Below, piece by piece: positions 13,319 to 37,649 of a DNA stretch of 38,112 nucleotides. The notes below the pieces were generated by a model that was given only the letters and a program-made list of their open reading frames with translations, searched no databases and was not told the DNA's origin. Made by a program: the position numbers and the translations under genes. The DNA is from a virus (lineage: Duplodnaviria; Caudoviricetes), in the IMG/VR virus record IMGVR_UViG_3300037478_000244, positions 1-38,112 of that record; one strand, given 5' to 3'. Position 1 is the stretch's first letter. Each line of letters opens with the position of its first letter.

Positions 13319-14223
13319 CAGGCCAGCTCTCCGATCAGGTTCGTGATGACGGCGGTCAGGTTCGTGGTGCTCACCCACGTGCCGCCCGTCCGCGGCTTGA
13401 ACGCGAGCCAGTTCGACGCGGCGCGTAGGATAGCTTGTCCGCAGTCCTGCGTCGAGAACCCGTCTTCGCTGTACACGCTGAAGCCGAACGAGTCCACCCC
13501 GCCGAGCGTGATCGCGGCGGGCATCGCGATCCGCAGCTCGGTCGGCGTGGCGCTCACGCTCGATGCCGTGATCGCCACCTTCACGTGGACCAGCTTGCCG
13601 AGGATCGCGTACTTGAAGTACGCCAGGTCGCCGCTGTCGACCGTCCAGGTGCCGCTCTGCGCGGTGAACGTCAAGTCGCCGTGCGCGACCGATGTCCAGG
13701 GCAGCTCCGCGGCCGCCGCTTCCGCGAGCTGCACCGCCCCGAACCCGAGCGCCGTGCCGCTGCGACGCAACACCTGGTGATCGCTGCCGGCGGTGATGGC
13801 GGCCAGGTCCGCGAGCGCGTTCGTCGCGTTGCCGAGTAGCGACAGCGCCGCGAGCTGGACGAGGTTCGCCAGGGCCAGCCGGCCGCTCACGGCCGAGACC
13901 GCGTTGCCGAGATCGACCGCGCCGAACCCGAGGTTCCCGCCAGCCCGGCGCAACACTTCCCCGTTGTTGATGCTGCTGATCTCGCCGAAGTTACCGGCGC
14001 CCGCCGAGCGCCCCACGACCGACGCCCCGTTGACCGCCGCTTCGATGTTCGCGAACGGTAACCGCCCAGTGACATCGGCGGCCAGATCGATCGGCAGAAT
14101 GCCGCTCTCGGCGATCTCGACGATGTCGCCCGTCATCGTGCGCGCAAGCGGCGTGTGGTCTTGGACGCGCGCCGGCGCGGTCACGCTACCCGACGGCGGG
14201 CGACGGCTGCGGCCTCCTCGCAT
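13318..14223 (-). CDS. Tail fibre/spike protein
   Basis: Gly/Ala-rich shaft with repeat (G/H)(E/Q)VLRR.G..LGFGAV.L twice; C-terminal Y.ILGKLVHV..I receptor-binding-type domain. Confidence 0.7.
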   Translation of the reverse strand: MRGGRSRRPPSGSVTAPARVQDHTPLARTMTGDIVEIAESGILPIDLAADVTGRLPFANIEAAVNGASVVGRSAGAGNFGEISSINNGEVLRRAGGNLGFGAVDLGNAVSAVSGRLALANLVQLAALSLLGNATNALADLAAITAGSDHQVLRRSGTALGFGAVQLAEAAAAELPWTSVAHGDLTFTAQSGTWTVDSGDLAYFKYAILGKLVHVKVAITASSVSATPTELRIAMPAAITLGGVDSFGFSVYSEDGFSTQDCGQAILRAASNWLAFKPRTGGTWVSTTNLTAVITNLIGELA

Positions 14224-17200
14224 CAGCGCTCCTGCGGCGGTGCGCCGAAGAGCACCGCGAACGGGTTCTCGGTTTCGTCTTCACTGAGTGCGACGAGCCC
14301 CTCGACGCTGCGCTGCATCTGGTTCGCCGGGTACCGGAAGATCACGCCGGCGGTCTGGTTCAGCGCCTTCAGTAGCCCGCCGTCCACCTCGCCCTGCGCC
14401 ACCTGGCCGCCGAGCTTGTAGACCTGCTGCAGCAGCCGCGCGCCGGCCGGGCCCTCATATCCGCGGTTCGACGATCGCAGCAGCCCGCCCAGTTCGCGCA
14501 GCACGATCATGCTGTTGAGCGCGCTGCCGCCCATCTCGGCCAGCACGTCCTTCGACAGCTCGAACAGATCGTCGTCCTCGTCGCCGCTGCCCTTCAGCAG
14601 CCGGCTGAGCACGATCGTCGCGAGCGCGGGGAAGAAGTAGATCAGCGACAGATCACCCAAGAACCGCGCGGTGCTGATCGGGCTCTTGAACGACGTCTGG
14701 TGGTACGCGCGCGCGGTCTGCCCGAACACCGTCGAGCCGTAGGTGTAGAACACCATGAACAACCGCGCGACATCGCCACCGCGCTGCACCTTCGACAGGT
14801 CGACGGTCTGCCCCCCGCCCTGGCTGTCGCGCACCGCCTGGTCGGCCAGCGCGATCGCCTCGTCCTCATTTTTGCCGGCCGCGCGCGACTTCTCGTACTG
14901 GCCGATCCAGGTGGGCACGTCGGCGACGCGCTGCGCCAGGCCGATGTGCCAGAGGAAGCTGTCGACGATGTTCTGCTGCGTGACGCGATCCGCGCTCACA
15001 CTCCGCACCAGCTTGTCGAACCAGCTCGCCTCCTGGATCTTGTTGCGCAGGTCGTTGATGTCCTGGCTCTGCGTCGTCGCGCGGTGCGCCATGAACGGGG
15101 ACACCGACCGGATCCACGCGACGGTGTTCTCCATCGTCGCCGCGTCGCGCATCCAGCGGAACATGCCGCGCATGACCCACGACGGCCCGACGCGCGCGGC
15201 GCCGTTGAACAACCCGAGCGGCTGCTGGATCGCAGTCCACAGGTTCAGCCCGAGCGCCGAGATCTGCGCGCCGGTCTTCGCCCAGGCCGCCCACTGGTCG
15301 ACGAGACTACCGCCCGGACGCTTGCCGACGGCGATGTCCTGCAGCGCGTCGGTGAACTGCCGGTACATCGGGTCGCCGCCGACCGCGTGGATCGCGTTGC
15401 TCACGTCGTCGTCGCGCAGCAGCCGACTGACGTCGATCAGCACCTCGTGGTGTGTCAGGTCGTGGAGTACCTGGTCGAGGTGGTTGAAGAGCACGCCCAG
15501 TTCGAGCCGCACCGGCAGCTCGACATGGTCGAGCCGGGTCTTTAGGTGCCCGCGTCGCGTCGTCGATCGGATGTAGGCGCCGGCGAGCTGCAGCTTGGCT
15601 TCGCTGGTGATCTCGTTCGTCCCCGGCGCGGCCGCCAGGCGCCGATCGTACGCGAGCGGATAGTAGCCCCCGCGGAAGCGGCCGTGCTTGGTGTCGACCG
15701 GGACCGCCTCGACCTTCTCGGGACGCAGCCCGGTGACCCGGTACGTCTTGTCGCTGATCTCCTGCCAGAAGCTGTCGACGAAGTCCCAGGTCTCTTGCAC
15801 GAACTCCCAGTCGTTGCGGTCGAGCGTGTCGAGGATCGCCTCGACCTGCGGCCGCGACCAGCGGCGCTTCGGATCGCTGAGGATGCGATCGCGCGACGTC
15901 TCGTTGCCCCAGTTCAGCGCCACCGAGAGGATCGCTTCGCGCGAGAGGCTCGCATTGATCGCCGGGATGAAGACCTTCTGGTTCCACCGCGCCAGCGCGC
16001 GGCCCGGATAGTGGCGCCGCAGGATCTCGTCGTACCGTGTGCCATCCTTCCGCCGGCGGTCGACTTCGCGGTCCTGCGCTTCGTTCAGCGGCCGGACCAC
16101 CAGGCTCCACATCGGCCCACCGTCGACGTAGCCATCGAGCCGCTGCGCCAGCTCCGCGACCTTCGTGTGCGACGCGAAAATGTTGGCGACGTTGAAGCGC
16201 CGTGCCTCGGCTCGGCGGAACTCCAGCGGCTGCGGCTGGACGGGGTTCTTCGTGACGATCGACTGCACCAGGCCGTCGCGCGCCGTCTCGTACTCCCGCT
16301 GCTCCTGCTGCGCGAGCAGCGTGTTCTTCAGCCGCGCCAGGTGCTCGATCTGCTTCAGTGTCTCGCGCAGCTCGCGGAGGCGCTCGACGGGCACCTGGCG
16401 ATAGTTCGTGCGCTGCGCCGCCTCCAGCACATCCGCCGGCACGTCGATGGGGAGCCCTTCGCGCTGGCGGGCGGCCACCCACTCTACTAACGTCTGGCGC
16501 CGATCGAGCGCCTTGTTACTGACACTCTGGAACTCGAACTTATTCAACAGCGCGTTGACCTGCGCCTGGTAACTCTCGCCGGCGCGCCCGAGCCGGGCCT
16601 GGGCCGGGCGCTGCGCGAGTCGCTTGGCGTACTTCTCCAGCGCTTCGGTCTCTTCGATCGCTGCCTGCGCCGCGCGGTGCATCGCCACCGCCATCCGCTG
16701 CTGCGCTTTGAACGCGACCGCCTCCTCGAACTTCCCGGCGGCCATCGCCTCGCTGGCTTCGCGCGCGGCCTTCTGTGCGGCCTGCCAGTAGAGCAGCGGC
16801 CGGATCTCGCGCACGGCGATCTTGCCGATGCGCTCGGTGGCGATCGCGTTGAGCTGCGCCGTCGGCACGAGCGCCCGGATCGCGGTGCGCACGGCGCGGC
16901 GGGCGCTGCCTTCTTCGGCGGCCGCCTGCGCGCGGGTCGCGGCGACGATCGGCCGGGCCCGGCGCGCGGCCGCACTGAGCGCGCGCAGCTCGGCGGTCAG
17001 CACCTCCTGGTACGCGCCCTCCTGGACCGCCACGCGGGCCTGCGCCTGGAGCGTGCCGTCGATGCGCAGGTCGCCGTACTGCTGCTGCATCCGCCGATCG
17101 GTCTCGGCGGTGACGACGGTGTCGAGCTTCTCGGTGGTCGCCGCCAGGACGGTCAGCAGCTCGTCGCCCGAGCTGAAGCCGGTTAGGTGCGCCACCTCGT

Positions 17201-20200
17201 CAACGTCGAGTCCGTCGTCGACGCTGTAGACGTACGGCCGATGCGTCGGCAGCCGCTCGTTGCCGTACTTCTCAACGATCGACGCCTTCGCGATCTTGAT
17301 CGGCGCCGGGGCGTCGCTGCCGTCGGGCAGTTCACCCCGCTGCAGCAACAGCAGTGCGGCGTAGTCTTTGCGCCGGCGGATCTCGCCTTCCACCTCCGTG
17401 CGCACCTCCGCCTTGCGGGCCTTCCACCAGGTGGTGCGCTCGCGCTGCAGCTCGCGGACGAGCCGGCGCGTGATGCGCTCCTCGGCTTCGTCGTGCGCGG
17501 CGCGCAGGGTCGCCAGGTAGCCCTGCCACTCGATCGGGCCGATGCCGGCGATCTCGAACGCTTGCTCGGGCGTGGCGAAGATCGGCGTCAGCCGCGCTTC
17601 CTTTTTCGCGGCCGCGATCGCGTCGGTGCCGGCGACCAAGCGATCGAAGACTTCGACGATCTCCGGACTCAGGTCGATGTGCAGCGCGGCGATCGACTCG
17701 TACACCTTCGACAGCCAGGTGCGGAACCGCTGGAACGCGCCAGCCATCTCGGGCACCGGCGCCCGGCCGCGCAGCAGATACGCTTCGAACGCGCGCGCGA
17801 ACTGCTCGTGCTGCTCGGTCCCGACCTGGTCGCGCGTCGCGACGTTCATCCACTTCAAGATGCGATCGAAGTCGTCGACGAGCGTCTTCTGGCCGTCAGT
17901 CCACGTCGACGGATCGCCGCGACGGATCCGGTCGGTCAGCTCTCCCATCATGTGCAGATAGAGATGGCCGGTCTCGTGCAGGAACGTCGAGAGGTTCGCC
18001 TGCGCGAAGAACTCGACGCGGATGCCCGCGCGGTTGATCGTGATCGCGCCGCGCTTGGCACTCGCCTCGACCGCGGGTGTCGGGGGCAGCTCCTCCTGGA
18101 AGAGTGTCTGCCCGGCCAGCGCGGCCTCACGCACCGCCGGCGTCAGTTCGAGGAACGGCACCTCGGCGACGCCCGGCTCGTCGCGCACCTGGATCTGTGT
18201 CGTCGCGACGCGCGCGCCACTCTTCTTCACCGCCGGCAGCTTGTTGACGACGTTCGGGAAGTCGACGTCGTAGAGCTTGGCCAGCCCCTTGCCGCCCACG
18301 TCGAGCTGCTCCTGTTCGATGCGGCCCTCTTCGGTCGTGAGGATCTGCCGCGCCAGCTCGTCACCGACCACGTCGCTGAGCTTGCGGCCTTCGATCTGCT
18401 GCCATTCATCGGACCCCGTGATGATGCCGTCCGCAGACACGTACACCGGATACATGGGCTGTCCCCCGCGTTTCGGGTAGAGCTTCACGTACCGCGTGCC
18501 CGTCGTGCGCCAGGCCGTCCACGAGATCTTGTTGAGCTGCTTCGACAGGCGGTACCGATCGCGCTGCATCTGCCCGGCGGTCCACGCGACCCCGTCGACG
18601 CCGAGATCAGCCGCGTGCCGGATCGCCCACTTGAACGCCAGCTCGCGCCACTGCTGCTGGAAGAGCTGCGGCATGTTGTCGAACTCGGCCTCGCCTGGTG
18701 GCTGCACTTCTTCGAGGAACAGCACGCGCCGCTCGGTGACGACATTGGTCGGCAGCGTGCCGGCGAGCGCCGTGCGTAGCGCGGCGATGCGGTTGTCGAG
18801 ATCGCGGAGCTGCCGCTGCCGGCGCTGGTCGTACGCGACCCCGACGCGGCCGCTGCCCTCCATCAGGTTCCGACGCTCCGCTTCGGCTGCGTCGAGCCCG
18901 GCCTGGACCTGCGTGAGCGGCGCCTTCGTCGGCTGGCGCGTCTCGACGATGCGACGCAGGTTGAAGCGCAGGCGCACGATCGGGTTCTCGATGTCGCGGT
19001 ACTGGTCGTGGCCGTCGCGCCAGATCGCCGCCTTGACGTCGCCCTGCTTCAGCCCGGCGGCCGTTAGGAACACCTCGCGATACGTGTCCGGGTCGGCGTG
19101 TTCGCCGTTGTTGAGCTGGTAGTCGGCGTACTTCACGCGCGCGCCTTCGCGCTCACCCTGCAGCTCGTCTTCGGCGATCGTCCGCGCGTGCGCGTGGCTG
19201 ACGCTGTTGCGCACCTCGATGTACCAGTCGCGCTGCATGATCTCTTCGAGGTGATCGCGGAACCGATCGGCGGCTTCCTGCGCCTCGTCGAGGGTGTCGA
19301 ACTCTTCCTCGTCGACTTTGTAGACGGTGGCGCCGGTCTCCTCGTCGAGGTTCTCCTGGATCGGCACGTAGACCGCCTCGGGGCCGTAGCCGCGGTCTTC
19401 GAGTTCCTGCACCTTCTGGTTGACGAGCGCCGCGTGGATCGTGTCCGCGCGCTCGTTCACCTCGCGCTCCGTATACCCGTCCGTCGTGAGCGTCACCCAC
19501 GTCACCGGCACGGCATGCTGCCGCAGGTACCCGAGTACCTCGTCGCGGGTGTAGGGCTGTGTGTCGGTGAGCGCCGAGACGTCGGTGAGCAGCAGCTCCT
19601 GCTCGTTCACGCCGAGCTTGCTGCCTTTGATGATGTTCTTCCAGTCGCGGCCGCTGGCGCGCGTCTGCTTCGCGGTCTCGACGGTGCGGATGACGCGGGA
19701 GTAGGCCCAGGACGCCGCGGTGGGCGGCGCGGCGGCGTCCTGGAAGAGAACTATGCCTTGGTCGTCGTCGACTTCGATCGCGCTGCTGACAGTCGCTGAT
19801 GGACCAGGGCCCGTTCCTGGGGCGTCGCGTCCCGGCCCGTCAGGTGCTTGTACAGCTTCAGTACCTGGTCCGCGCTCGGGAGCCCCTTCGGGAGCAATAC
19901 TCTGTCCGGCTTCGTTGACGACGGCACCTGGCCCTCCTGGTCCCTGCCAGGTCGGTCCATGGACCCACCCGACGGGGTAGTCGATAGTAACAGAGTTCTT
20001 GTCAAAAAGGTCGAAGTACGCGATCTGCTCGTGCTTCCGGCCGATCGCCTGCGCCTGCTTCTTCGAGGTGACCACCCGGCTGATGTCGAGGTACACCTGG
20101 TCGCCGTCGACCCAGGCGCCGAAGTGGTTGCCCTCCTGCAGCAGCAGATCGGCGTGCGCGATGACGTAGTCGGCCAGGGCCTGCGGGGTGACGTCGTTGA

Positions 20201-23200
20201 TGTGATGTACCGCCGCCGCCTCGGGATAGACGGCCAGCGCGAACCCCTTCACCGGTGCGACGCCTTCGAGGATCGAGTACGTGAACCCGCCGCCCTCGCG
20301 GAGCTGCGCCAGCAGGTTCTGGTACGGCTCGCGGTTTACCGCTTCCCGCGCTTTGCGGACCCAGTCGAGCCGCCGAGCTGAACGGAGAAGGCTTGGTGTA
20401 ACCGGGACAGCTTCTCGCGGCGTTGGATCGCCTCCTGCCGCCGCAGCGTCGAGATCGAGATCAGCGTCGAGATCAGATCCGATGTCACTTTCGAGGATCG
20501 AGAGAACCGGGCCATAGCCTGCTGCCTCCAGGATCGTGCGCACCGGCGCGTCGCGCGTGATGAGCTGCGCGAAGTCCGGGGTCGAGGTGATCGCCGCGTC
20601 GCTGATCAGGCCCTGCTTGAGGATCGCTTCCGCGGTCGTCCCCTCGGCCTCCGCCAGCTCGTACATCGTCTTCGCCCACGACCAGACGGTTTCCTGCACC
20701 TCCGCCGGCGTCCAGGTCTCGCCGCTGATCCGCGTGAGCCGATCGGCGACGCGGCGGATCTTGGCGGCGTGCGCGACGTGCGCCGACTTCGACAGCCCGC
20801 GGCCGAACACCGCGTGCATCGTGCCGGCGAAGACTGTCATCCAGGCGTCCGTGGTGACCTGCTGCTGATGTCCAAGCAGGTTCAACATGAACGGGTTGAC
20901 CTTCGGCCCGCTGAGCTGGATCGTCGTCGCGTCTTCGGTGGCCAGCGCGCGCACCGTGTTGGGTATCCACGACGGCAGCACACTGTCTTTGCCTTCGCTC
21001 TGCTGGACACTGCGATCGAGGATGCGCCGGATCTTGGCTTCGCTCGTGGGGCGTCCCTCCGCGACCCAGTTCGCCCACGTGTTGACCGCGTTGTACAGGT
21101 TCGCTTCGACGCTGGTCTTCGGCGACAGCGCGGCCAAGAGTGCCGTGAAGCGCGGCGCGTCGACGTCGCCGAAGAGCTGCCGGATCGCGGCGCCGCTGCG
21201 CTGGTACCACCCGCGTTTCGCTTTGCCGGCCACCGCGGCCGCCATGTAGTCGGCCTCGCCCGGAAGATCGCTGAAGACGTCGAGCACGCGCGTCATCACG
21301 TCGCGGCGCAGGCCGGCGCGCTCCTCGGGCAACAGGTGCGGGGCGATGCGCTCGAACCCGGCCGGCAGGGCGATCGCGTCGCCGGCGGCCCGGGCCCGGT
21401 GGAACAGCACCACGCCCTCCGCGGCGGTCCTGGTGGCCTCCTGGGCGGCCTCCGTGGGGTCCGCGGGCTCGGCAGGGGGGGCGGTCGCCTGGGCGCCCTG
21501 GACCGCCGCCAGAGCCGCCCGGACGCCATTCCTGGTGCCCTGCGGGCCGATCTGTAGGTTGTAGGTGTCGAGCAGCGCCATCGGGTCTTCCCCGGCGCGC
21601 TCGGCCAGGTTCGTCACGACCTGCTCGACGCCGGCCGCGTACGTGTTGGCCACCTGGAGCGCGTCGGCGTTCGCGCTGGCCACCATCGCGTGGAAGCCGG
21701 CATCGGCGACGAGCGTCGCCAGGATCGCCTGACGCATCGGGGAGCCGGCCGCCTCGGGCGTCTCCGTGCCCGCGGCCGCGGCGCTCACCGCGTCCTGGAT
21801 CGACGCCGCGAGCTGCTGCTGTTGCTCGCGCATGCCCTCCAGCTCGACCGCCGTCGGCTCGTCGGGCGTGAGTCGCACGTTCTGACTGAAGAACGCATGA
21901 TGCTCGCTCGGCGCGATCTGCGCGGCGTACTGCCCGATCGGGATCGCCAGGTCGGCGCCGCTCGCGCGCGCGGTCTCGTACGCGGTCGCATCGCCGGTGA
22001 GTTCGAGCGCCTTCTGCGCCGGGTCTTCGCCGCGCGCCTGGAAGTACCGCGTGAACTCCTCGACCGGTGCATACACCGTCGACGTCGGCGAGCCCTCGGC
22101 CATGTGCTGCACCAGCTCGCCGAACTTCTCGGGCGATCGCTTGGCCACCGGTGACTCGGTCGCGCGCTCCGCGATCCGATCGAGCACGGTCTTCGCGCTG
22201 CGGGCCATGCCGGTCTGGATGCCGATCATCGTCAGCGTCGCGATCGTCGTCTGCGCCGCGGCTGCCGGGCGCTCGGCGATGTAGTCGCTGAACGTCTTGT
22301 GCGCGTTGCTCGGCAGGACCGCCCAGTCGTTCAGATCCTGCAGCACGGTCGCGATGTTCTCGCCCACCAGCTCGGGGAAGAGCTGATGGACCATCGTCTG
22401 CACGATCGGCGCCTTCATGCCGACGTCTTTCAGCAGCCGCGTCAATGGAATGCGCTCGGTGACCGCCTCGATGACGCCCTGCGCGGCCGCGTACGGGACC
22501 GCGCGATCGACCGGGACGCCCTGCTGCCGCGCTTCGGCGTACGCCTCGCCGCTGGTCACCGCCCCGAGCAGCGCGAGTGACGCGCCTGGGCCGGCGGCGA
22601 CACCGACCAGCAGCGACGGCGCCGCCATGCCGATCGACTCGATGCCGCTGTACATCGCCTGCTCGACAAACCCCGCGCCGACTTGCTCGCCGCGGAACTG
22701 ATCCTGCATCGCCTCGGCGACATCCGCGGCGCCCTTCGCGAAGTGCGCGAGCGGCGCGCCGGGCACCAGGCCAAACGGCGTGGCCACGATCGGCGAGACT
22801 TCGCCGAGCTGCTGCACCAGGCCCCACACGCCGCGGCCGAACCCCTGGACGCCGGCGACCAACGAGCCCCCGACATTGCGATGGATGCGAATGATCCGTT
22901 CGAGTGCGGTGAGATCCTCGACGTCATCGCGCACGATCGCCGCGTGGTACGGATCGCGCGCCACCCACGAGGTGAGCGCCGGCGCCGTGTCGCGGATCTC
23001 CTGGTACGGCGTCTCGGTCAGCCGCGCGCGCTTGACCATGTCGTCGTAGTTCCGCTCGACGACCGGGGCGGGCACGCCCAGGCGATGTGACAGCCGCAAG
23101 ATGTCCGCGGCCCGATCGGGCGCCAGCGGCGCGCTGTCGATCTCCGCCTTCCTGAGCGTGCGCTGCTCGGCCTGGCGATCGCCGTCGAGCAGCGCCCGCG

Positions 23201-23324
23201 CGGCCTCGAAGGTCGGCGAGCGAGGCGACGGCGGCGGCGGTGGCGGGATCGCCGGCTGTTGCAGCGGTGGGGTCTGCTCGTCTTCCTCGACGGGCAGGAT
23301 CGGATCGGGCACGCCGAACGCCAT
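14223..23324 (-). CDS. Giant (3033 aa) ejection/internal virion polyvalent protein: HhH-GPD-like, possible SAM-lyase-like, GNAT-like and zincin (HExxH) domains
   Basis: Position after two internal virion genes (T7 gp16-like slot); ANLSTFLHETGH...HEQFARAFEAYL zincin; SGPK...VTTD HhH motif. Confidence 0.85.
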   Translation of the reverse strand: MAFGVPDPILPVEEDEQTPPLQQPAIPPPPPPSPRSPTFEAARALLDGDRQAEQRTLRKAEIDSAPLAPDRAADILRLSHRLGVPAPVVERNYDDMVKRARLTETPYQEIRDTAPALTSWVARDPYHAAIVRDDVEDLTALERIIRIHRNVGGSLVAGVQGFGRGVWGLVQQLGEVSPIVATPFGLVPGAPLAHFAKGAADVAEAMQDQFRGEQVGAGFVEQAMYSGIESIGMAAPSLLVGVAAGPGASLALLGAVTSGEAYAEARQQGVPVDRAVPYAAAQGVIEAVTERIPLTRLLKDVGMKAPIVQTMVHQLFPELVGENIATVLQDLNDWAVLPSNAHKTFSDYIAERPAAAAQTTIATLTMIGIQTGMARSAKTVLDRIAERATESPVAKRSPEKFGELVQHMAEGSPTSTVYAPVEEFTRYFQARGEDPAQKALELTGDATAYETARASGADLAIPIGQYAAQIAPSEHHAFFSQNVRLTPDEPTAVELEGMREQQQQLAASIQDAVSAAAAGTETPEAAGSPMRQAILATLVADAGFHAMVASANADALQVANTYAAGVEQVVTNLAERAGEDPMALLDTYNLQIGPQGTRNGVRAALAAVQGAQATAPPAEPADPTEAAQEATRTAAEGVVLFHRARAAGDAIALPAGFERIAPHLLPEERAGLRRDVMTRVLDVFSDLPGEADYMAAAVAGKAKRGWYQRSGAAIRQLFGDVDAPRFTALLAALSPKTSVEANLYNAVNTWANWVAEGRPTSEAKIRRILDRSVQQSEGKDSVLPSWIPNTVRALATEDATTIQLSGPKVNPFMLNLLGHQQQVTTDAWMTVFAGTMHAVFGRGLSKSAHVAHAAKIRRVADRLTRISGETWTPAEVQETVWSWAKTMYELAEAEGTTAEAILKQGLISDAAITSTPDFAQLITRDAPVRTILEAAGYGPVLSILESDIGSDLDADLDLDAAAAGGDPTPREAVPVTPSLLRSARRLDWVRKAREAVNREPYQNLLAQLREGGGFTYSILEGVAPVKGFALAVYPEAAAVHHINDVTPQALADYVIAHADLLLQEGNHFGAWVDGDQVYLDISRVVTSKKQAQAIGRKHEQIAYFDLFDKNSVTIDYPVGWVHGPTWQGPGGPGAVVNEAGQSIAPEGAPERGPGTEAVQAPDGPGRDAPGTGPGPSATVSSAIEVDDDQGIVLFQDAAAPPTAASWAYSRVIRTVETAKQTRASGRDWKNIIKGSKLGVNEQELLLTDVSALTDTQPYTRDEVLGYLRQHAVPVTWVTLTTDGYTEREVNERADTIHAALVNQKVQELEDRGYGPEAVYVPIQENLDEETGATVYKVDEEEFDTLDEAQEAADRFRDHLEEIMQRDWYIEVRNSVSHAHARTIAEDELQGEREGARVKYADYQLNNGEHADPDTYREVFLTAAGLKQGDVKAAIWRDGHDQYRDIENPIVRLRFNLRRIVETRQPTKAPLTQVQAGLDAAEAERRNLMEGSGRVGVAYDQRRQRQLRDLDNRIAALRTALAGTLPTNVVTERRVLFLEEVQPPGEAEFDNMPQLFQQQWRELAFKWAIRHAADLGVDGVAWTAGQMQRDRYRLSKQLNKISWTAWRTTGTRYVKLYPKRGGQPMYPVYVSADGIITGSDEWQQIEGRKLSDVVGDELARQILTTEEGRIEQEQLDVGGKGLAKLYDVDFPNVVNKLPAVKKSGARVATTQIQVRDEPGVAEVPFLELTPAVREAALAGQTLFQEELPPTPAVEASAKRGAITINRAGIRVEFFAQANLSTFLHETGHLYLHMMGELTDRIRRGDPSTWTDGQKTLVDDFDRILKWMNVATRDQVGTEQHEQFARAFEAYLLRGRAPVPEMAGAFQRFRTWLSKVYESIAALHIDLSPEIVEVFDRLVAGTDAIAAAKKEARLTPIFATPEQAFEIAGIGPIEWQGYLATLRAAHDEAEERITRRLVRELQRERTTWWKARKAEVRTEVEGEIRRRKDYAALLLLQRGELPDGSDAPAPIKIAKASIVEKYGNERLPTHRPYVYSVDDGLDVDEVAHLTGFSSGDELLTVLAATTEKLDTVVTAETDRRMQQQYGDLRIDGTLQAQARVAVQEGAYQEVLTAELRALSAAARRARPIVAATRAQAAAEEGSARRAVRTAIRALVPTAQLNAIATERIGKIAVREIRPLLYWQAAQKAAREASEAMAAGKFEEAVAFKAQQRMAVAMHRAAQAAIEETEALEKYAKRLAQRPAQARLGRAGESYQAQVNALLNKFEFQSVSNKALDRRQTLVEWVAARQREGLPIDVPADVLEAAQRTNYRQVPVERLRELRETLKQIEHLARLKNTLLAQQEQREYETARDGLVQSIVTKNPVQPQPLEFRRAEARRFNVANIFASHTKVAELAQRLDGYVDGGPMWSLVVRPLNEAQDREVDRRRKDGTRYDEILRRHYPGRALARWNQKVFIPAINASLSREAILSVALNWGNETSRDRILSDPKRRWSRPQVEAILDTLDRNDWEFVQETWDFVDSFWQEISDKTYRVTGLRPEKVEAVPVDTKHGRFRGGYYPLAYDRRLAAAPGTNEITSEAKLQLAGAYIRSTTRRGHLKTRLDHVELPVRLELGVLFNHLDQVLHDLTHHEVLIDVSRLLRDDDVSNAIHAVGGDPMYRQFTDALQDIAVGKRPGGSLVDQWAAWAKTGAQISALGLNLWTAIQQPLGLFNGAARVGPSWVMRGMFRWMRDAATMENTVAWIRSVSPFMAHRATTQSQDINDLRNKIQEASWFDKLVRSVSADRVTQQNIVDSFLWHIGLAQRVADVPTWIGQYEKSRAAGKNEDEAIALADQAVRDSQGGGQTVDLSKVQRGGDVARLFMVFYTYGSTVFGQTARAYHQTSFKSPISTARFLGDLSLIYFFPALATIVLSRLLKGSGDEDDDLFELSKDVLAEMGGSALNSMIVLRELGGLLRSSNRGYEGPAGARLLQQVYKLGGQVAQGEVDGGLLKALNQTAGVIFRYPANQMQRSVEGLVALSEDETENPFAVLFGAPPQER
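19751..19927 (-). CDS. Overprinted +1-frame 58-aa gene nested in the giant gene (nested ORF B)
   Basis: AGGAGG at 19933-19938, 5 nt before GTG 19927; the host frame shows A/T-rich third positions here; product MPSSTKPDRVLLPKGLPSADQVLKLYKHLTGRDATPQERALVHQRLSAARSKSTTTKA. Confidence 0.65.
   Translation of the reverse strand: MPSSTKPDRVLLPKGLPSADQVLKLYKHLTGRDATPQERALVHQRLSAARSKSTTTKA
20336..20515 (-). CDS. Overprinted +1-frame 59-aa gene nested in the giant gene (nested ORF A; not in the ORF track)
   Basis: GGAGG at 20525-20529, 9 nt before ATG 20515; GC3-rich codons in the +1 frame; product MARFSRSSKVTSDLISTLISISTLRRQEAIQRREKLSRLHQAFSVQLGGSTGSAKRGKR. Confidence 0.6.
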   Translation of the reverse strand: MARFSRSSKVTSDLISTLISISTLRRQEAIQRREKLSRLHQAFSVQLGGSTGSAKRGKR

Positions 23325-25162
23325 CAGCGCACCGAACCCTGAGCGAGCATGCGCAGGTACAGGCCGACGATCGCGTCAGGCGTCGGCGTGCGCTTGGCGG
23401 CCGTGAGCGCCGCGCTGAGATCGATGACGTCCTGGCGCGGGATGCGCGTGACCGCGTTGCCGCCGATCTCGCCGCCCAGGCGCGAGCGCACTTCCGCTTC
23501 GAAGCGGATCAGGCTGGCGTCGTCGACGGTGCGGCCGACACTGCGCAGCGTCTCTTCGAGCACGCGCCGGCGGCTGGTGCTGATGTCGCCGGTCTCGATG
23601 CGCACCAGCGGCTTGGTCGTCGAGCCCCACAGGCTGCCCTTCACCTCGACGTTTTCGCTGAGCAGCCGGTCGAGGATGCTGCGGATCTCCTCGTTCGCCA
23701 GCTCCTTGCCGGTCGCGCGCTGCAGCTCCTCGACGCGGCGGTCGAGCATCGCGCGCGTGAGCGCGATCGCGCGGCCGTCGGCGCTGTCCGGTTTGGCGCG
23801 CGGGTCGAACCCGTGCAGCAGCATCGTGTCGTCGAACAGCTCCTGGCGCGTGCGGAACGATCCGGTCTTCGCGTCGATCTCCTTCCGGTCGCCCTTCTTC
23901 ACCGACACCTGGAGATCCATCATCTGCTCCAGGTCGGCCGACGACAGCACGCCGGCGTACTTGAGCAGGTTCTCCTGGACGAACGTCGCTTCGTCGTCGA
24001 CCGACATCAGCTTCAGCCGATAGAGCGTCGCCGGGTCGGTCTTCACCGCGATGCCCTGCGCCTTGTGCTCAGCGTACGACTTCAGCGCGCCGGCTTCGCC
24101 CGGGTCGAGCTGTGCCCAGTCGGCCGGCGGAATGTCGGTCCAGCGGCCGGTACGATCGATGATGTTCTTGCTGTTCACCATGATCGTCTCGATGCGCTCG
24201 CGATCGCGGGCACGGCGCACCTGGTCCTCGTGTTCGAGCGACTGCAGCACGCGATCCTCCAGCTCGCCCGAGTACTTCTCGCGCGCCGCCTTGCGCTGCT
24301 TCTCCAGCGTGTCGAGCGTCGGGTCGCCGAGGATCGTCGTGAGCGCCTGCTGCGTCTGCTCGCGCACCGTGCCCTCGGCCAGCGCCTTCTCGATGCGCTC
24401 CAGCGACGGGCCGGCGATCTGATCCTTCAGCTCCTCGAAGTACGCCTGGGCGCCGGCGGTCTTGCCCTGCGCGAGTAGTCGGCCGATGACGCCCTCGTGG
24501 ACCTGCGTGCGCAGCTCGGCGATCGCGGCCTCTTGCGCTTCGGGCCCGAGGCGCAGCCGCGACGCGCTGGTGCGGATCACTTCTTCGCCGAAGGCCAGGG
24601 TCTCGCCGACTTTCCGCGGATCGTTCGCGTTGGCGATCGCGGTCGACCGCACGTTCTCCAGCGACGACTTCACTTCACCCGCGTAGTACGCCTGGGCCTC
24701 GTCGAACACGTAGCGCTTGACCGACAGGTCCATCGACGTGCGCTGCTGCGCGAGCCAGCGCGACCACATGGCGCGCTGCCGATCGTTCGAGAGCCCGGTG
24801 CCCAGTTCACTGGCGTTGCGGGTGAAGACGTCGCGGAACTCGTCGGGCAGCGCCTGCGCGTCCTTTCCCTTCTTGGTGTACGCGCCGCTGTCGGGATCGA
24901 ACTGCCAGGCGTTCAGCCGCTCGGTGAACCGGTTGCTGGCTTCGAGGAACGCGGCTTCGTCGGCGGCCTTCTGTTCCTCCTGGATCATCCCGAGCGCGAT
25001 GTTGGTGCCCTGGATGGCGACGCCGGCGATCGTCTGCGCCGTCCGTGCGCGCTCCTCCTCGACGCCAGCGCCGAGCGACAGCGCGGTGGGCGCTGCGGTG
25101 CGACGCGCGCCGGGGAGCCCGCGTAGCGCGACTTGACGTTGACCGTAACGGACGACTGGCAT
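23324..25162 (-). CDS. Internal virion (ejection) protein, T7 gp15-like slot
   Basis: Helical 612-aa protein, MP.V.Y..RQV start, synteny. Confidence 0.75.
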   Translation of the reverse strand: MPVVRYGQRQVALRGLPGARRTAAPTALSLGAGVEEERARTAQTIAGVAIQGTNIALGMIQEEQKAADEAAFLEASNRFTERLNAWQFDPDSGAYTKKGKDAQALPDEFRDVFTRNASELGTGLSNDRQRAMWSRWLAQQRTSMDLSVKRYVFDEAQAYYAGEVKSSLENVRSTAIANANDPRKVGETLAFGEEVIRTSASRLRLGPEAQEAAIAELRTQVHEGVIGRLLAQGKTAGAQAYFEELKDQIAGPSLERIEKALAEGTVREQTQQALTTILGDPTLDTLEKQRKAAREKYSGELEDRVLQSLEHEDQVRRARDRERIETIMVNSKNIIDRTGRWTDIPPADWAQLDPGEAGALKSYAEHKAQGIAVKTDPATLYRLKLMSVDDEATFVQENLLKYAGVLSSADLEQMMDLQVSVKKGDRKEIDAKTGSFRTRQELFDDTMLLHGFDPRAKPDSADGRAIALTRAMLDRRVEELQRATGKELANEEIRSILDRLLSENVEVKGSLWGSTTKPLVRIETGDISTSRRRVLEETLRSVGRTVDDASLIRFEAEVRSRLGGEIGGNAVTRIPRQDVIDLSAALTAAKRTPTPDAIVGLYLRMLAQGSVR

Positions 25163-25174
25163 CAGCGTCTCCGA

Positions 25175-25768
25175 TCAGCGGGCGACCGACGGGTTGTTCG
25201 TGCGCGGCGCCGACCCGGTGGTGCGGCCAAAGCCGTAGCGCAGCCCGATCAGCGACGTCGCGGTCCCGAGCGCCGTCGACGCGGCACCCACGTACGCCTG
25301 CTTCGCCCGTTCGCCGGCGGCGCGTTCGAGCATCACGCCTTCCTGGCGGGCGATGACGCCGCGCTGGCGCAGATCTTCAGCTTCGACTTTGAAGCCCCAG
25401 GCTTCGCGCGCCGCGTTGGTGCGGATCGTCAGCGCGTCCAGCTCGCCGAGGTACGCCGCGTCGGCCTGCACGTCGAGCGACGATCCGAAGCTGACGTCGA
25501 CGTTGCTGGCCGCGAACCCGGCGCGCTGCGCGGCGATGATGCCCTTGACGCCCTGGCGGAAGCGGGCCTCCTCTTCGGCGCCGCGGGTGATCGCATCGGC
25601 CGCCTGCAGGTCGGCGACGTTCGCGTTCCAGTCAGCCAGGTCCGCTTGGGCCTCCGCGGCCGCGCGCTGAGCCTCGCCGGCTTTCTTCTCAGCTTTCCCA
25701 CCCCGGACTTGGTTGAAGATCCCCAGGCCCGCCGAGACGCCGAGCGCGATCGCCGTGAACGCCGCCAT
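25175..25768 (-). CDS. Internal virion (ejection) protein, T7 gp14-like
   Basis: Hydrophobic N-terminus, Ala-rich, QRAGFAASNVDVSFGS.LD motif typical of these proteins. Confidence 0.8.
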   Translation of the reverse strand: MAAFTAIALGVSAGLGIFNQVRGGKAEKKAGEAQRAAAEAQADLADWNANVADLQAADAITRGAEEEARFRQGVKGIIAAQRAGFAASNVDVSFGSSLDVQADAAYLGELDALTIRTNAAREAWGFKVEAEDLRQRGVIARQEGVMLERAAGERAKQAYVGAASTALGTATSLIGLRYGFGRTTGSAPRTNNPSVAR

Positions 25769-28344: not shown

Positions 28345-31300
28345 CTAGCGCCCTCGGATCCAGTCGGGATCGAGCTGCGGCGGTTCCTGCTGCTGCGCGC
28401 GCGCGTTCATCGTCCGGGCGCGCTCGACGGTCTGCGCGAACATCGTCCAGCAGTCGGCCGCGGTCATTTTATTGCGCGACAACCCGGGCGCCAGCTTCGA
28501 GGCGAGCAGCCAGGCGAACGCGAGCTTGAACAGATCATCGCCGGCGGTGGCGACGCAGGTCGATCGATACGTGTACTCAAGCTGCACGCGCACCGGGGCG
28601 GCGAGTGTCGGGGTGTACGTCGGGTCGGTGTAGTTCGACACGAGGCGCCGACCGGCCGTGTCCGGGCCGTGCAGGCGGAACGGCGGCGGATCGGGATCGG
28701 CGCGACGGCCGTACTCCGGTCGCACCAGGCGCCGCGGGAACACCATATCGCTCGGCGCGCGCCACGAGTACCGCCAGTCCTGGTTGAACGGCACCGTCTC
28801 GGTTCCTGACAGCCACTGCAGGTCGGCGTACTTCGTCGCGAAGTCCCAGGGGAACTCGCGCAGCGCTTCGTTGGCCGTGTCGGCGTAGAACAACCGGCAG
28901 CCGTACGCCTGCGGCGTGTTGTCGGTGACGATGTCCACGATCGGCTCGGTGATCCCGATGAACGCGAGCGCCTGCTGGCAGATCTTCTGCGACTCGGTCG
29001 GACACTGCTCGAAGTCGCCCCCGCCTGGTCCAGGCGGCTCCGGCCCGCCAGGACCGCCTGGCCCTGGCTCGGGTGGCTCGACAGGCTCGGGCGGCAGCTC
29101 GGGACCGGGCGGCGTCGGCCACTCGGGCGGCGGGATCGGGGTGACCGGCTGGTGCTCACAGTTCACCGACCAGCCGCCGTTGCCGGCCGTGTCGCAGCCG
29201 ACGATGACGAAGTAGTCGAACTGGATGCCGTTCGTGTTGAGCGCCGACCCGACGGTGAACGTGTCGATCCCGCCGGCGGTGATCCCGGTCGCCGCGTTCG
29301 AGGTGCCCGGGTTGACCTGCGTCGACGTCGTGCCGGTGTGACTCGGGTCGCGCTGGAAGCCGGCGCCGTTGTGCGGCTGCACGTAGACGAAGATCGGCCG
29401 CTTGCCGCCGGTGCCGAACGTGATCGTGCGCGAGGCGCTGCCGTCGCCGGTGTACGTCCCGATGCGCACGACGCGCTCGATGCCCGGGTCGGCTGAGCCG
29501 TCGTTCATGCGGAACGCGCAGAAGTGCGACTCCTCGCCAGCGTGGTGGTACGCGCTCTTCGTCGTGATCGATCCCTGCGCGACGCTCACCGCGGCCGCGA
29601 TCTTCGTCAGGTTGACCGGCGAGATCTCTTCGGCGCCGTGCCCGATGCCTTTGAAGTAGTGGTTGATCGTCGCGGCGCCGCTGCGCGTGAACCGATGGCC
29701 CCACAAGACCTGCGGCAGGAACGTCGGCACCCACAGCGACGTGACCTGGTCGACCGTGCCCTTGTGCAGCCGATCGTGGAACGACAGGCAGAACCGCATG
29801 CCCGGGTCCATGAACGCGATGTACTGGTAGTCGACGCCGGCGGCGTTGCTCGATGCATCGCTGCCCACGATGCGCGCGACGAACTCGCCAAAGAACCCGT
29901 CAACGGGGTTCGGCGGATCGAACGGCACCCACGACGGCACGAGCCACGCCTCGGGGTCGTAGGGCTGCTGCATCCCCTTCGTCGGCGAGTACATGCCCGA
30001 GAACCAGTGCGCGCCGTTGTCGTGGTTGCTGACGCGACGGACCCACAGCCAGGACACCGGGGCGTTGAAACGCAGTTCCAGCGACGTGGCGTTGCCCGTG
30101 TAGATCCCGCTCTTGATGATGACCGGGCTGATCGGGGCGGCGCCGTGCCGCGACCACGGCGAGTCGAGCATGAAGTGGTTGTGGAGCCCCGTCGGCGGAT
30201 CGGGTGGCGTGATCGGGATGCCGGCCTCGGGGATGATGTCCTCTTCGCTGAAGACGCCGAGCATGACCGCGGTCGCCTGCAGCGACTGCACGTTCGCATT
30301 GGTGCCGACGTTGGCCTTCGTGTACCGGGCGAGCAGACCCGTGAGCTGCTCCGGCTGCGTCAGCGCGCTCGGCAGGTAGCCTGCGATCTTCCACGCCAGC
30401 GACACTCCGTCATTCAGCACCAGGTCGACCATCGCGGCGCCGTTGATGCTGTAGCTCAGCGTGCCGTCGTCCGGGTCCGCGGTGACCGAGCTGAAGACCC
30501 CGAAGACGATCGCGATGACGCCGCCGTTGATCGCGTGCGGATCTTTGGCGACCTTCTCCCAGTCGAGTGCGGCTTCAAGCTGACTGAGCGCCGTCGTCGA
30601 CTGATGCGTCGTGCCCGGCGTGAGCGCGTTGATCGCCGGGAGCTGGCGCAGCTCGTCGATGTCCCCCGGCCAGGCGACCGCGTCGTGCCCGGGCCCGTAG
30701 GCGATCGGGTCGAGGCGCACGAGCTTCGAGCCGTTGAGGAAGTCGAGCCCCTGGAACGTCCCCGGATAGTCGGCGCAGGTCCAGTCGTCGAAGTGCGCCG
30801 AGACGATCGGACTCGTGACGCCCGGGTTGCCGAGATCCGAGTTCCGCAGGAACCCGGCGCCGCCCAGGCCGTTCGAGGGGAAGCCGGTAATGGTGACCTG
30901 GTGGACCCCGTTGATGAACAGCCGCAGCTCGCTGCCGGCGCCGCTCTTCACGAACACATCGAACTTCCACCACTTGTCGACGGTCGGCGTGGTCACCGTC
31001 GCGACGGCCATCTGCGTCCGCACGTTGGACAGGTCGACGTTGTAGATGCCGATCTGCCCCGACGGGAGCTGCGCGAGCGCGACGCCCTGCGAGGACGACA
31101 CCGTGAGATGGATGCGCCAGAACTCGTACACGTCGCTCGGCAACACGCGCGGGCGCATGTAGAACCGCTGCCAGACTTCCGTCGGCATGATGCCGGTCTG
31201 GATCTCGTCGGTCGCGTGCGTCTTGACGCTGCCGCCGGCCGGGTTCGTGCAGATCAACCCGAGCCCGCCCGGATGGCGCGATGCCTCGGCGCTGACGTTG

Positions 31301-31818
31301 TCGGCGAATGCCCCCGTGCTGCCGCCGGCGCCCGCGGTCGGCACCTCGAAGCCGTCGGCGAACATGAGCTTCTGGATCGGCGGCGCCCCCGGGCCGACGG
31401 GCACCCCGCCTTCGGTCGGCTCGACCGGCGTGTACACGTAGCGCCCGCGCCAGGTGATCTGCACCTCGAAGGTCAGCACCACATTCCAGAACGTCGCGCC
31501 GATGGGCAGCGTCAGCTCGTCCTGGTCGAGCGGCGGGAACGTCTGCGCGAGATCGGTGATCCAGGGCGAGGCGATGTACGGCGCCAGCGGCTTCTGCGTG
31601 CCGACGGGCACGATCGTCGCGCCAAACTCGATGGCCGCGCGCTGCGGCGAGGCGAAGAGCGATCCCGCGAACGGTGGCGACCCGAGGGGGAGCGTTGGAA
31701 ACGAGACCAGGTCGCCGTTCAGATCATTGCGGGGAACATTAACGCGGCCAGCCTCGGCCTGGAGCTGCGCCACGAGAGCCTTGTCGCTGAGATGGATCTC
31801 GTAGTCGATAAAGGGCAT
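28345..31818 (-). CDS. Tail tubular protein A (adaptor) fused to a ~930-aa N-terminal beta-rich extension
   Basis: C-terminal ICQQALAFIG...CRLFY...LREFPWDFATK...F..AFAWLLASKLAP is the gp11-like adaptor; Pro-rich linker precedes it. Confidence 0.8.
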   Translation of the reverse strand: MPFIDYEIHLSDKALVAQLQAEAGRVNVPRNDLNGDLVSFPTLPLGSPPFAGSLFASPQRAAIEFGATIVPVGTQKPLAPYIASPWITDLAQTFPPLDQDELTLPIGATFWNVVLTFEVQITWRGRYVYTPVEPTEGGVPVGPGAPPIQKLMFADGFEVPTAGAGGSTGAFADNVSAEASRHPGGLGLICTNPAGGSVKTHATDEIQTGIMPTEVWQRFYMRPRVLPSDVYEFWRIHLTVSSSQGVALAQLPSGQIGIYNVDLSNVRTQMAVATVTTPTVDKWWKFDVFVKSGAGSELRLFINGVHQVTITGFPSNGLGGAGFLRNSDLGNPGVTSPIVSAHFDDWTCADYPGTFQGLDFLNGSKLVRLDPIAYGPGHDAVAWPGDIDELRQLPAINALTPGTTHQSTTALSQLEAALDWEKVAKDPHAINGGVIAIVFGVFSSVTADPDDGTLSYSINGAAMVDLVLNDGVSLAWKIAGYLPSALTQPEQLTGLLARYTKANVGTNANVQSLQATAVMLGVFSEEDIIPEAGIPITPPDPPTGLHNHFMLDSPWSRHGAAPISPVIIKSGIYTGNATSLELRFNAPVSWLWVRRVSNHDNGAHWFSGMYSPTKGMQQPYDPEAWLVPSWVPFDPPNPVDGFFGEFVARIVGSDASSNAAGVDYQYIAFMDPGMRFCLSFHDRLHKGTVDQVTSLWVPTFLPQVLWGHRFTRSGAATINHYFKGIGHGAEEISPVNLTKIAAAVSVAQGSITTKSAYHHAGEESHFCAFRMNDGSADPGIERVVRIGTYTGDGSASRTITFGTGGKRPIFVYVQPHNGAGFQRDPSHTGTTSTQVNPGTSNAATGITAGGIDTFTVGSALNTNGIQFDYFVIVGCDTAGNGGWSVNCEHQPVTPIPPPEWPTPPGPELPPEPVEPPEPGPGGPGGPEPPGPGGGDFEQCPTESQKICQQALAFIGITEPIVDIVTDNTPQAYGCRLFYADTANEALREFPWDFATKYADLQWLSGTETVPFNQDWRYSWRAPSDMVFPRRLVRPEYGRRADPDPPPFRLHGPDTAGRRLVSNYTDPTYTPTLAAPVRVQLEYTYRSTCVATAGDDLFKLAFAWLLASKLAPGLSRNKMTAADCWTMFAQTVERARTMNARAQQQEPPQLDPDWIRGR

Positions 31819-36703: not shown

Positions 36704-37153
36704 TCAGTACCCGCCGCCGACGAGTGCCGTCTTGCGCAGCACCGCCGTCGGGTTCGGCGCACCGCCAGGTCGCAGCCGGGTGAGCGCGGAGCTGCCGGCG
36801 CCTCGCTTCCGCACGCGCAGGGCGGCGGCGCGCGCAGCGGCCGCGGCATCGGCCCCGAGCGCCGGCGGGGGCTCCGGGATCGCGGCGCCGATCAGATCGG
36901 TGCGGGGGACCGCGGTGCCGGTCTGCTCACGGCCCTGGCGCGGACGGGAGCCGCTGCGATCGCGGCCGAACGGCCCGGGCCGCGGCGCCCCAGGCTGTTG
37001 ACCGCTGGCCGGCGGGCGCCGTCGACCGAACGCGCCACGAGGCGACGGGTCAGCGGCCGCCGGCGTGTTGCCGGTCGCGCGAGCGGAAGCGGAGCTGCCG
37101 GTACGCTTTGCCACGTCGTCACTGCCTCCGAACAGCGCGCTGAAGACGGCCAT
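36704..37153 (-). CDS. Small basic low-complexity protein before the portal
   Basis: GAGG RBS; ends KTALVGGGY like small pre-portal proteins of this phage type. Confidence 0.55.
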   Translation of the reverse strand: MAVFSALFGGSDDVAKRTGSSASARATGNTPAAADPSPRGAFGRRRPPASGQQPGAPRPGPFGRDRSGSRPRQGREQTGTAVPRTDLIGAAIPEPPPALGADAAAAARAAALRVRKRGAGSSALTRLRPGGAPNPTAVLRKTALVGGGY

Positions 37154-37649
37154 CGAGATCGCCCTCGCTCACCTCGATCACCTTCGGCTCCGTGCGCGTG
37201 GGCCGAGCCAACATCCGCATGAACGCGGTCTCGACTCTCGTGTACTGCCGCTTGCGTTCGAGTAGGACGCCCACCGGGCTGTCGGCGGGCGCGAGCATTT
37301 TAACCAGAACCGCCCCATTAGTGGTAGCGAACTCTTCCATAGCATCGAGCAGCAGCGTACCGACGCCGCTCGGACGCGCCGGTTTCTCGACGAACCAGAT
37401 CACTTCTTCGAGGTACGGCCAGCCGGTCAGCATGTGCTCAACGATCACGCCCGCGATCATGCCGACGACGCGATCGGTGTCGTCGACGGCGCACCAGATC
37501 GCCCCGCGCTCGACCACGACGTCGAACAGCCGTTCGAGGTGGCCCGGCTTCGGCGGGAACATCATCCCGTACGGCGTCAGCTCCAGGAACTCGCGCGTGA
37601 GTTCGAGCAGCCGCTCGCGATCGCCAGGTTCTGCAACGCGGATGATCAT
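37119..37649 (-). CDS. GNAT-family acetyltransferase
   Basis: MIIRVAEPGD, VVGMI, WFVEKPARPSGVGTLLL..MEEFA...GA acetyl-CoA-binding motif. Confidence 0.85.
   Translation of the reverse strand: MIIRVAEPGDRERLLELTREFLELTPYGMMFPPKPGHLERLFDVVVERGAIWCAVDDTDRVVGMIAGVIVEHMLTGWPYLEEVIWFVEKPARPSGVGTLLLDAMEEFATTNGAVLVKMLAPADSPVGVLLERKRQYTRVETAFMRMLARPTRTEPKVIEVSEGDLDGRLQRAVRRQ

Follow-up and report, generated by a model that had tools for sequence, protein, structure and literature searches.

The virus record IMGVR_UViG_3300037478_000244 (38,112 bases, 68% G+C; the whole stretch was analysed and is called the window here) contains a giant gene for a multi-domain virion protein, and two small open reading frames (ORFs), ORF A and ORF B, lie inside it in the +1 frame, each associated with the protein domain that precedes it. 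ORF A and ORF B are almost certainly real genes. They are conserved small genes, each tied to its preceding domain (domain A and domain B, respectively), and it is proposed that their products restrain that domain in the cell that makes the virions. This reading draws in part on analogy with described systems, and its probability is put at about 0.5.

The giant gene (14223..23324, minus strand, 3033 codons) has a G+C fraction at third codon positions (GC3) of 0.90, and GC3 is at least 0.80 in every 40-codon stretch that starts outside codons 880–1200. Only two dips occur, with main-frame values of 0.53 across ORF A and 0.51 across ORF B, and each dip contains one +1 ORF with a strong ribosome-binding site (RBS). 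The sliding GC3 analysis therefore agrees with a preliminary description of this DNA, which had reported A/T-rich wobble positions in two linkers. ORF A (20336..20515, minus strand) encodes 59 residues, has a GC3 of 0.80 in its own frame and begins at an ATG preceded at 9 nt by GGAGG (20525..20529, minus strand), which lies inside the main-frame motif EAAGYG. ORF B (19751..19960, minus strand) encodes 58 residues from a GTG at 19927 or 69 residues from an ATG at 19960. Read from the GTG (19751–19927), its own GC3 is 0.81, and AGGAGG is found 5 nt upstream (19933..19938, minus strand). The lengths of 58–59 codons, strong RBSs and G/C-ending codons first ascribed to the two ORFs are thus confirmed. 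The start assigned to ORF B, GTG 19927, does carry an RBS, but ATG 19960 is an alternative; the relative L002 keeps both start codons and has an RBS at the ATG only.

Across the whole giant gene, ORF A and ORF B are the sole alternative-frame ORFs of at least 40 codons that combine GGAGG or AGGAG with an ATG or GTG start. As the +1 frame of the giant gene contains 57 stops in 3033 codons, an open stretch of 59 codons is by itself a weak signal; the signal for nested genes is the coincidence with the GC3 dips together with conservation, rather than openness. The nested-ORF sequence is not an assembly slip. Contigs from runs X4 (20269–20510 and 19574–20116), X5 (19808–20188) and X6 (19771–20099) match the linker stretches of the window with 0 differences, and the locus L001 is identical to the window across domain A.

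Domain A (20340..21317, minus strand; residues 670–995) belongs to DUF7178 (PF23802; Pfam E 1.2e-9, 38.8 bits, above the curated cut-off of 27) and is predicted to be a HhH-GPD glycosylase/lyase by fold. Its structure model, with a predicted local distance difference test score (pLDDT) of 92.6, best matches MjOgg (Z 11.4, root-mean-square deviation (rmsd) 3.8, 182 aligned residues); for helical folds, a Z under 13 calls for caution, although the first 17 rows are all members of the OGG family (OGG2/AGOG/OGG1). Foldseek likewise ranks SsOgg first (E 0.11, probability 1.0). EndoIII/Ogg-type glycosylase/lyases carry their catalytic Lys and Asp 18 residues apart. The predicted catalytic pair of domain A, Lys808 (20901–20903) and Asp826 (20847–20849, both minus strand), is invariant in all 72 aligned sequences, and the HhH-GPD-like assignment of the preliminary description is upheld by the OGG-like fold and this pair. 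The predicted activity could harm replicating DNA. A search of PDB sequences gave no match for domain A or domain B, and the ESM Atlas returned only unnamed or DUF7178 viral clusters.

ORF A had been placed as starting where domain A ends. The model instead shows a low-confidence loop followed by a well-predicted, conserved final helix (model residues 308–325; giant-protein residues 977–994), and since this helix lies 3′ of the loop, ORF A overlaps the loop and the end of domain A instead of coming after it. The mycobacteriophage Kimona carries a compact, solo DUF7178 gene that has neither the C-terminal extension nor ORF A.

Conservation of ORF A was assessed with an alignment of 38 DUF7178 regions, which was searched against three collections and gave 80 loci (best of 321), 80 loci (best of 335) and 17 loci. 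A set of 181 loci was reduced to 76 at <80% identity, and to 74 after L178 and L180 were dropped as cut; L005, a copy of the window's own locus, is among the 74. Because the loci are related, counts over them are not independent events. At the ORF A position, 70 of the 74 loci have a +1 frame that is open for at least 35 codons, where synonymous recoding predicts 41.5; in 59 the frame is open with an ATG, compared with 14.2 predicted by recoding and 3.9 elsewhere in the genes. The conserved main-frame motif EAGYG encodes the RBS and start of ORF A, and its anchor Tyr codon is TAT in 41/63 loci (17.1 expected). In loci with TAC at the anchor, the start is often an ATG lying some 13 codons further upstream, so that the start alternates between two sites, mostly each with its own RBS. 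In 71 of the 74 loci the linker has a lower GC3 than the domain.

Profiles built without the tested locus and its close kin, read at a threshold of 8 bits, detected ORF A in the +1 frame of 58/74 loci, in the main frame of 0/74, in the +2 frame of 0/74 and in 0/792 control stretches; the window scores 13.4 bits and L002 26.9 bits. The +1 peptides share the consensus core LxxKQxRLLxxL. A comparison of 27 closely related pairs gave, for main-frame positions 1, 2 and 3, 0.087, 0.055 and 0.322 substitutions per site in domain A and 0.159, 0.086 and 0.137 in the linker. Change in the linker thus moves off the main-frame wobble position toward position 1, which is the wobble position of the +1 frame. 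The selection on the +1 frame that the preliminary description had anticipated is seen in this fall at the third position (0.322 to 0.137) and rise at the first (0.087 to 0.159), and ORF A is under selection as a protein. In the loci fetched through domain A, ORF A is confined to the DUF7178 end in members of this clade: all 157 profile matches are located there, and no free-standing ORF A was found in these loci.

Domain B (19983..20303, minus strand; residues 1008–1114) is a phrog_17808-like α/β domain with 2341 relatives at E 0.001. A Gly, Trp1071 and Asp1080 are invariant and Gln1100 is near-invariant. Modelled alone, without ORF B, domain B reaches a pLDDT of 91.9. An S-adenosylmethionine (SAM) lyase was considered for it; this candidate has no Pfam match and is unsupported by profile or fold comparison, as domain B aligns to T3 SAMase with Z 3.0, rmsd 6.7 and 88 aligned residues, and with a profile–profile probability of 26% over 20 columns; a pattern search of the loci for SAM-lyase stretches was likewise empty. 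The preliminary description had both ORFs follow enzyme domains, which is predicted for domain A from its OGG-like fold; domain B has no clear structural match.

The search for domain B loci gave 108 matches, which were reduced to 59 at <80% similarity, the window copy included. A profile of ORF B, seeded solely from four proteins in which the tail is in frame (P0136, P0180, P0186 and P0202), found ORF B at most about 140 bases behind domain B in 25/59 loci. None was found in upstream (0/53), reverse (0/59) or distant (0/51) controls. ORF B is nested in the +1 frame in 15 of the 25 loci, is free-standing or stop–start coupled in 8 and is fused in frame in 2, so that domain B and ORF B are found together in three forms: a two-gene operon, a nested pair in polyproteins and a fusion. 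The motif KPxLxL...LYxxLTGRxPTPEE is kept in all three, which places ORF B, too, under selection as a protein, and the window ORF B scores 37.7 bits on this profile from four other proteins. Main-frame GC3 falls in 15/15 nested cases, and 10.8 of these 15 frames would be expected to stay open after synonymous recoding. The co-occurrence of a +1 ORF with the same domain in homologues, proposed earlier as a check, is therefore found for ORF A (58/74) and ORF B (15/59).

Domain B proteins gave a further test of position. An out-of-frame ORF B shadow lies behind domain B in 39 of the 87 proteins (of 159) that have at least 55 residues downstream, some of which may be loci used to build the profile; the controls were empty (upstream, 0/88; domain A linkers, 0/120). 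In the fetched loci, ORF B occurs only behind domain B. Polyvalent proteins are among the hosts of nested pairs, as are MuF and portal fusions that also carry zeta toxin, ART-PolyVal, PARP-like, Acb1 and topoisomerase domains, in a scan that covered 29 of 35 long hosts. One locus, L055, holds both pairs: a 693-residue gene contains domain A with nested ORF A and ends in domain B, and ORF B follows as a coupled, separate gene. From these arrangements, the pairs appear to travel between polyvalent, MuF and portal polyproteins as cassettes of two genes. A tree of domain B, built on 57/59 rows without L186 and L247, has little resolution and therefore does not give the order of the free, nested and fused forms.

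Several sequences near domain B resemble ORF B or accompany it. Divergent strand-plus-helix sequences missed by the profile stand free behind domain B in L201, L231 and L184, and are fused in L210, L227, L230 and L272; given these tails, an ORF B-type partner may be commoner than 25/59. P0009, P0016 and P0017 carry an in-frame LTGE.PT.EE motif, like the ORF B core, about 60 residues after domain B. Many cargo domains in domain B loci have a short tag in front of them, for example PRD..G.W or GSGNFGH.GRPG, and these tags are possibly packaging or processing signals.

The free, nested and fused arrangements fit a scheme in which the giant gene captured a cassette of a domain gene followed by a small gene, and the domain gene then lost its stop codon. 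The giant frame would now read through the small gene in the −1 frame, yielding a linker of G/A/P/D/E/R, and the small proteins would initiate at their own RBSs on the same late mRNA, being made alongside the giant protein as separate chains. The ORF A product would bind the predicted DNA glycosylase/lyase and the ORF B product the candidate effector, domain B. When the giant protein is packaged the small proteins would be left behind, freeing the delivered domains in the next host. That the small proteins bind the neighbouring domain directly is probable; that they inhibit it is an even proposition, for which cognate inhibition during late expression is suggested by analogy with MuF toxins and IapK, as described in the available text of PMC12226406, and with Rpn, in that of PMC10327210. 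More tentatively, and on balance short of an even chance, phage polyvalent and MuF/portal polyproteins in general may grow by swallowing effector–inhibitor operons, each inhibitor then being encoded in another frame within the linker that follows its effector.

The toxin–immunity-like cassettes first suggested for this gene are supported in that the partners are conserved, domain-specific and, for ORF B, separate genes elsewhere; the 7/74 loci without ORF A, the 34/59 without a detected ORF B and the fusions do not conform to them. These and the following observations weigh against restraint of the domains. ORF A is missing from L050, L077, L155, L172, L174, L179 and L181, and the six of these with a full domain A retain the Lys and Asp; a further 9 loci score <8 bits on the held-out profile. 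The window ORF A is itself a diverged member of its family, at 9.5 bits in a second profile test in which 1/500 shuffles scored as high. Ugi is an acidic DNA mimic. ORF A is basic (net positive in 55/70) and is therefore not a DNA mimic of this acidic type. Among the 34 domain B loci in which ORF B went undetected, 15 are classed as cargo-type, and the association of ORF B with cargo-type hosts (17/25 with ORF B vs 15/34 without) is not significant (p 0.11), several tags having escaped the motif pattern used. Of the minimal solo domain B genes, 0/7 carry ORF B, a count made by eye and after the fact. A structure search with domain B found no clear match (best Z 4.3). Finally, ORF B is fused in frame in loci L256 and L224 and in proteins P0136, P0180, P0186 and P0202, an arrangement as compatible with a part that completes or activates the domain as with an inhibitor.

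The main rival to inhibition is a positive or structural subunit: the small proteins would bind the domain and supply it with a completing strand and helices, aid its folding, activate it or act as a packaging adaptor, possibly in the virion. The in-frame fusions (2/59 loci, 4/159 proteins) speak for such a role, as do the strand-plus-helix tails noted by eye, fused or free, in L210, L227, L230, L272, L201 and L231; Cas11d, made from an internal start, offers a precedent in the available text of PMC10327210. However, domain B is modelled confidently without ORF B (pLDDT 91.9) and stands alone in compact genes, for example gp108 of Rhodococcus phage Madraxi. A positive partner could also simply be fused, yet ORF B is out of frame in 15/25 loci. 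A positive role is rather less likely than restraint.

The small genes might instead have functions of their own and co-travel as neighbours in a captured operon, with no physical link to the domain. Loss of the partners in several clades would suit this, as would L142, which nests a small gene that looks unrelated to its upstream domain. It is an unlikely explanation, as the ORF A and ORF B profiles match only behind their own domain across varied hosts and three arrangements, including fusion; solo copies of the small genes are poorly sampled in loci fetched through the domains, and 8 ORF B database matches came without context. A programmed +1 frameshift, by which the giant protein would terminate within ORF A or ORF B and so take on the fused form again, is highly improbable. 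In-frame domain B–ORF B fusions do occur and the +1 frame is open 5′ of both starts in the window, but in many homologues a stop closes that frame 4 codons before the ATG, the RBS-bearing starts are conserved and switch between sites, and the free-standing copies need a start of their own. That the two ORFs arise merely from a Gly/Ala/Pro/Asp-rich linker within a gene of high G+C content, as frames staying open after synonymous recoding in 41.5/74 (ORF A) and 10.8/15 (ORF B) cases might suggest, is largely refuted by the +1 motifs, the suppressed third-position change, the conserved starts and RBSs and the free-standing ORF B genes, and is scarcely credible.

Restraint by a nested partner can be set beside described systems. 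Domain A resembles the OGG2/AGOG 8-oxoguanine glycosylases in fold and in its invariant Lys/Asp pair 18 residues apart, and differs from them in its 9–13% identity, its position as phage cargo and the C-terminal extension that holds ORF A. In phage lambda, the small gene Rz1 lies wholly nested in the +1 frame of the larger gene Rz, and the two are separated in other phages. Unlike Rz1, ORF A and ORF B contain no Cys and no lipoprotein signal, and they lie in a 9-kb virion gene outside a lysis cassette.

As reported in the available text of PMC12226406, the immunity gene downstream of a MuF toxin encodes a product that occludes the active site (Apk2–IapK). The present pairs share with MuF systems, as that text portrays them, a virion-associated carrier with a cargo domain and a small partner gene directly after it, and domain B–ORF B also occurs in MuF and portal fusions. 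In contrast to the C-terminal toxin and separate immunity gene of MuF systems, the window has internal cargo, a partner nested in a different reading frame and two cassettes in series; a C-terminal domain with a separate partner gene is not found in the window, and the separate arrangement is seen in 8/59 domain B relatives. In the Rpn genes-within-genes, in the available text of PMC10327210, the gene of a DNA-acting protein similarly has an internal start that yields a small inhibitor of this protein. RpnS, however, corresponds to the C-terminus of RpnL in the same frame and has a role in host defence, whereas the partners here are phage-encoded and of unrelated sequence; as both ORF A and ORF B lie in the +1 frame, no in-frame internal start of the Rpn type is found in the window.

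The giant protein is like the polyvalent proteins of Iyer et al. 2017 (PMC5512222), as characterised in main-text passages of that paper, in being large and multi-domain, in its place in a virion module, in carrying LPD22 and exchangeable cargo and in its predicted injection. It is unlike that account in its nested partner genes, which are absent from those passages; 'overlapping', 'glycosylase' and 'self-protection' occur 0 times in the main text. No paper dealing with DUF7178 or with overprinted genes of polyvalent proteins turned up in a literature search with thin coverage of subscription papers. No Pfam or PHROG family is matched by more than 2 members of the ORF A or ORF B family, and no cultured phage with either pair was found in the searches. 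The contribution of this locus is the one-to-one tie of partner to domain, found whether the partner is free, nested or fused.

How a phage can produce toxic virion cargo and yet spare the producing cell is a standing question for polyvalent proteins, and two defined domain–partner pairs are now offered for it. The linkers of such proteins are unannotated genes and not neutral spacers, and a GC3 dip with an RBS provides a way to mine partner proteins of uncharacterised cargo domains. An ORF A that inhibits domain A would be a small-protein regulator of a HhH-GPD enzyme. On the more tentative view that polyproteins grow by swallowing effector–inhibitor operons, each dip would mark a toxic, virion-delivered domain and its cognate inhibitor; ORF A would then be the first small-protein inhibitor of a HhH-GPD DNA glycosylase, and ORF B an inhibitor of a new effector fold.

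The giant gene is multi-domain, carries an LPD domain and sits within a virion gene module, as polyvalent-protein genes do. Pfam and PHROG matches place LPD22 at residues 64–151, DUF7178 at 695–882 and a phrog_17808-like region at 1011–1115, in addition to a phrog_9880 core. The minus-strand module is BPP-1-like and encodes a head–tail connector, Bbp19, a GP7 capsid protein, Bbp16 and tail proteins, then a T7 gp14-like internal protein (25175–25768), a 612-residue protein (23324–25162) and the giant protein. The giant protein is likely the third ejection protein of this module; its ejection is suggested by gene position and by the prediction made for polyvalent proteins in the available text of PMC5512222. 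Elsewhere in the window, a minus-strand gene at 28345–31818 encodes 1157 residues, of which the last 213 belong to the phrog_394 tail family and the first 944 have no family match, and a GNAT acetyltransferase gene (37119–37649, minus strand) heads the virion module.

The same giant genes were scanned for an RBS, an ATG and 35 codons inside a GC3 dip, which gave 28 ORF A matches plus 17 more, the +1 frame holding all of them and the +2 frame none. Among the 17, two sets recur as pairs that follow other domains; no fewer than two of the 17 are already accounted for, one as an ORF A and one as an ORF B. One nested +1 family recurs at residue 1519 of L155 and residue 308 of L181, in a clade without ORF A and behind a different, unnamed domain; a second, with RBS and ATG, is found at residue 470 of L159 and residue 621 of L170. 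By eye, the nested peptides of L072 (residue 1155), L074 (residue ~1354), L120 and L177 are alike and follow the pattern KP..E.F....EF.EA...W. The nested +1 ORFs at residue 526 of L011 and residue 435 of L014 lie in the N-terminal part of the giant protein and have a long hydrophobic stretch, and these are possible membrane peptides. L053 has a nested +1 ORF with a GC3 of 0.97 at about residue 760, immediately after an InPase domain. The small basic gene nested in a linker of L142, at residue 310, encodes what we take to resemble a common phage protein.

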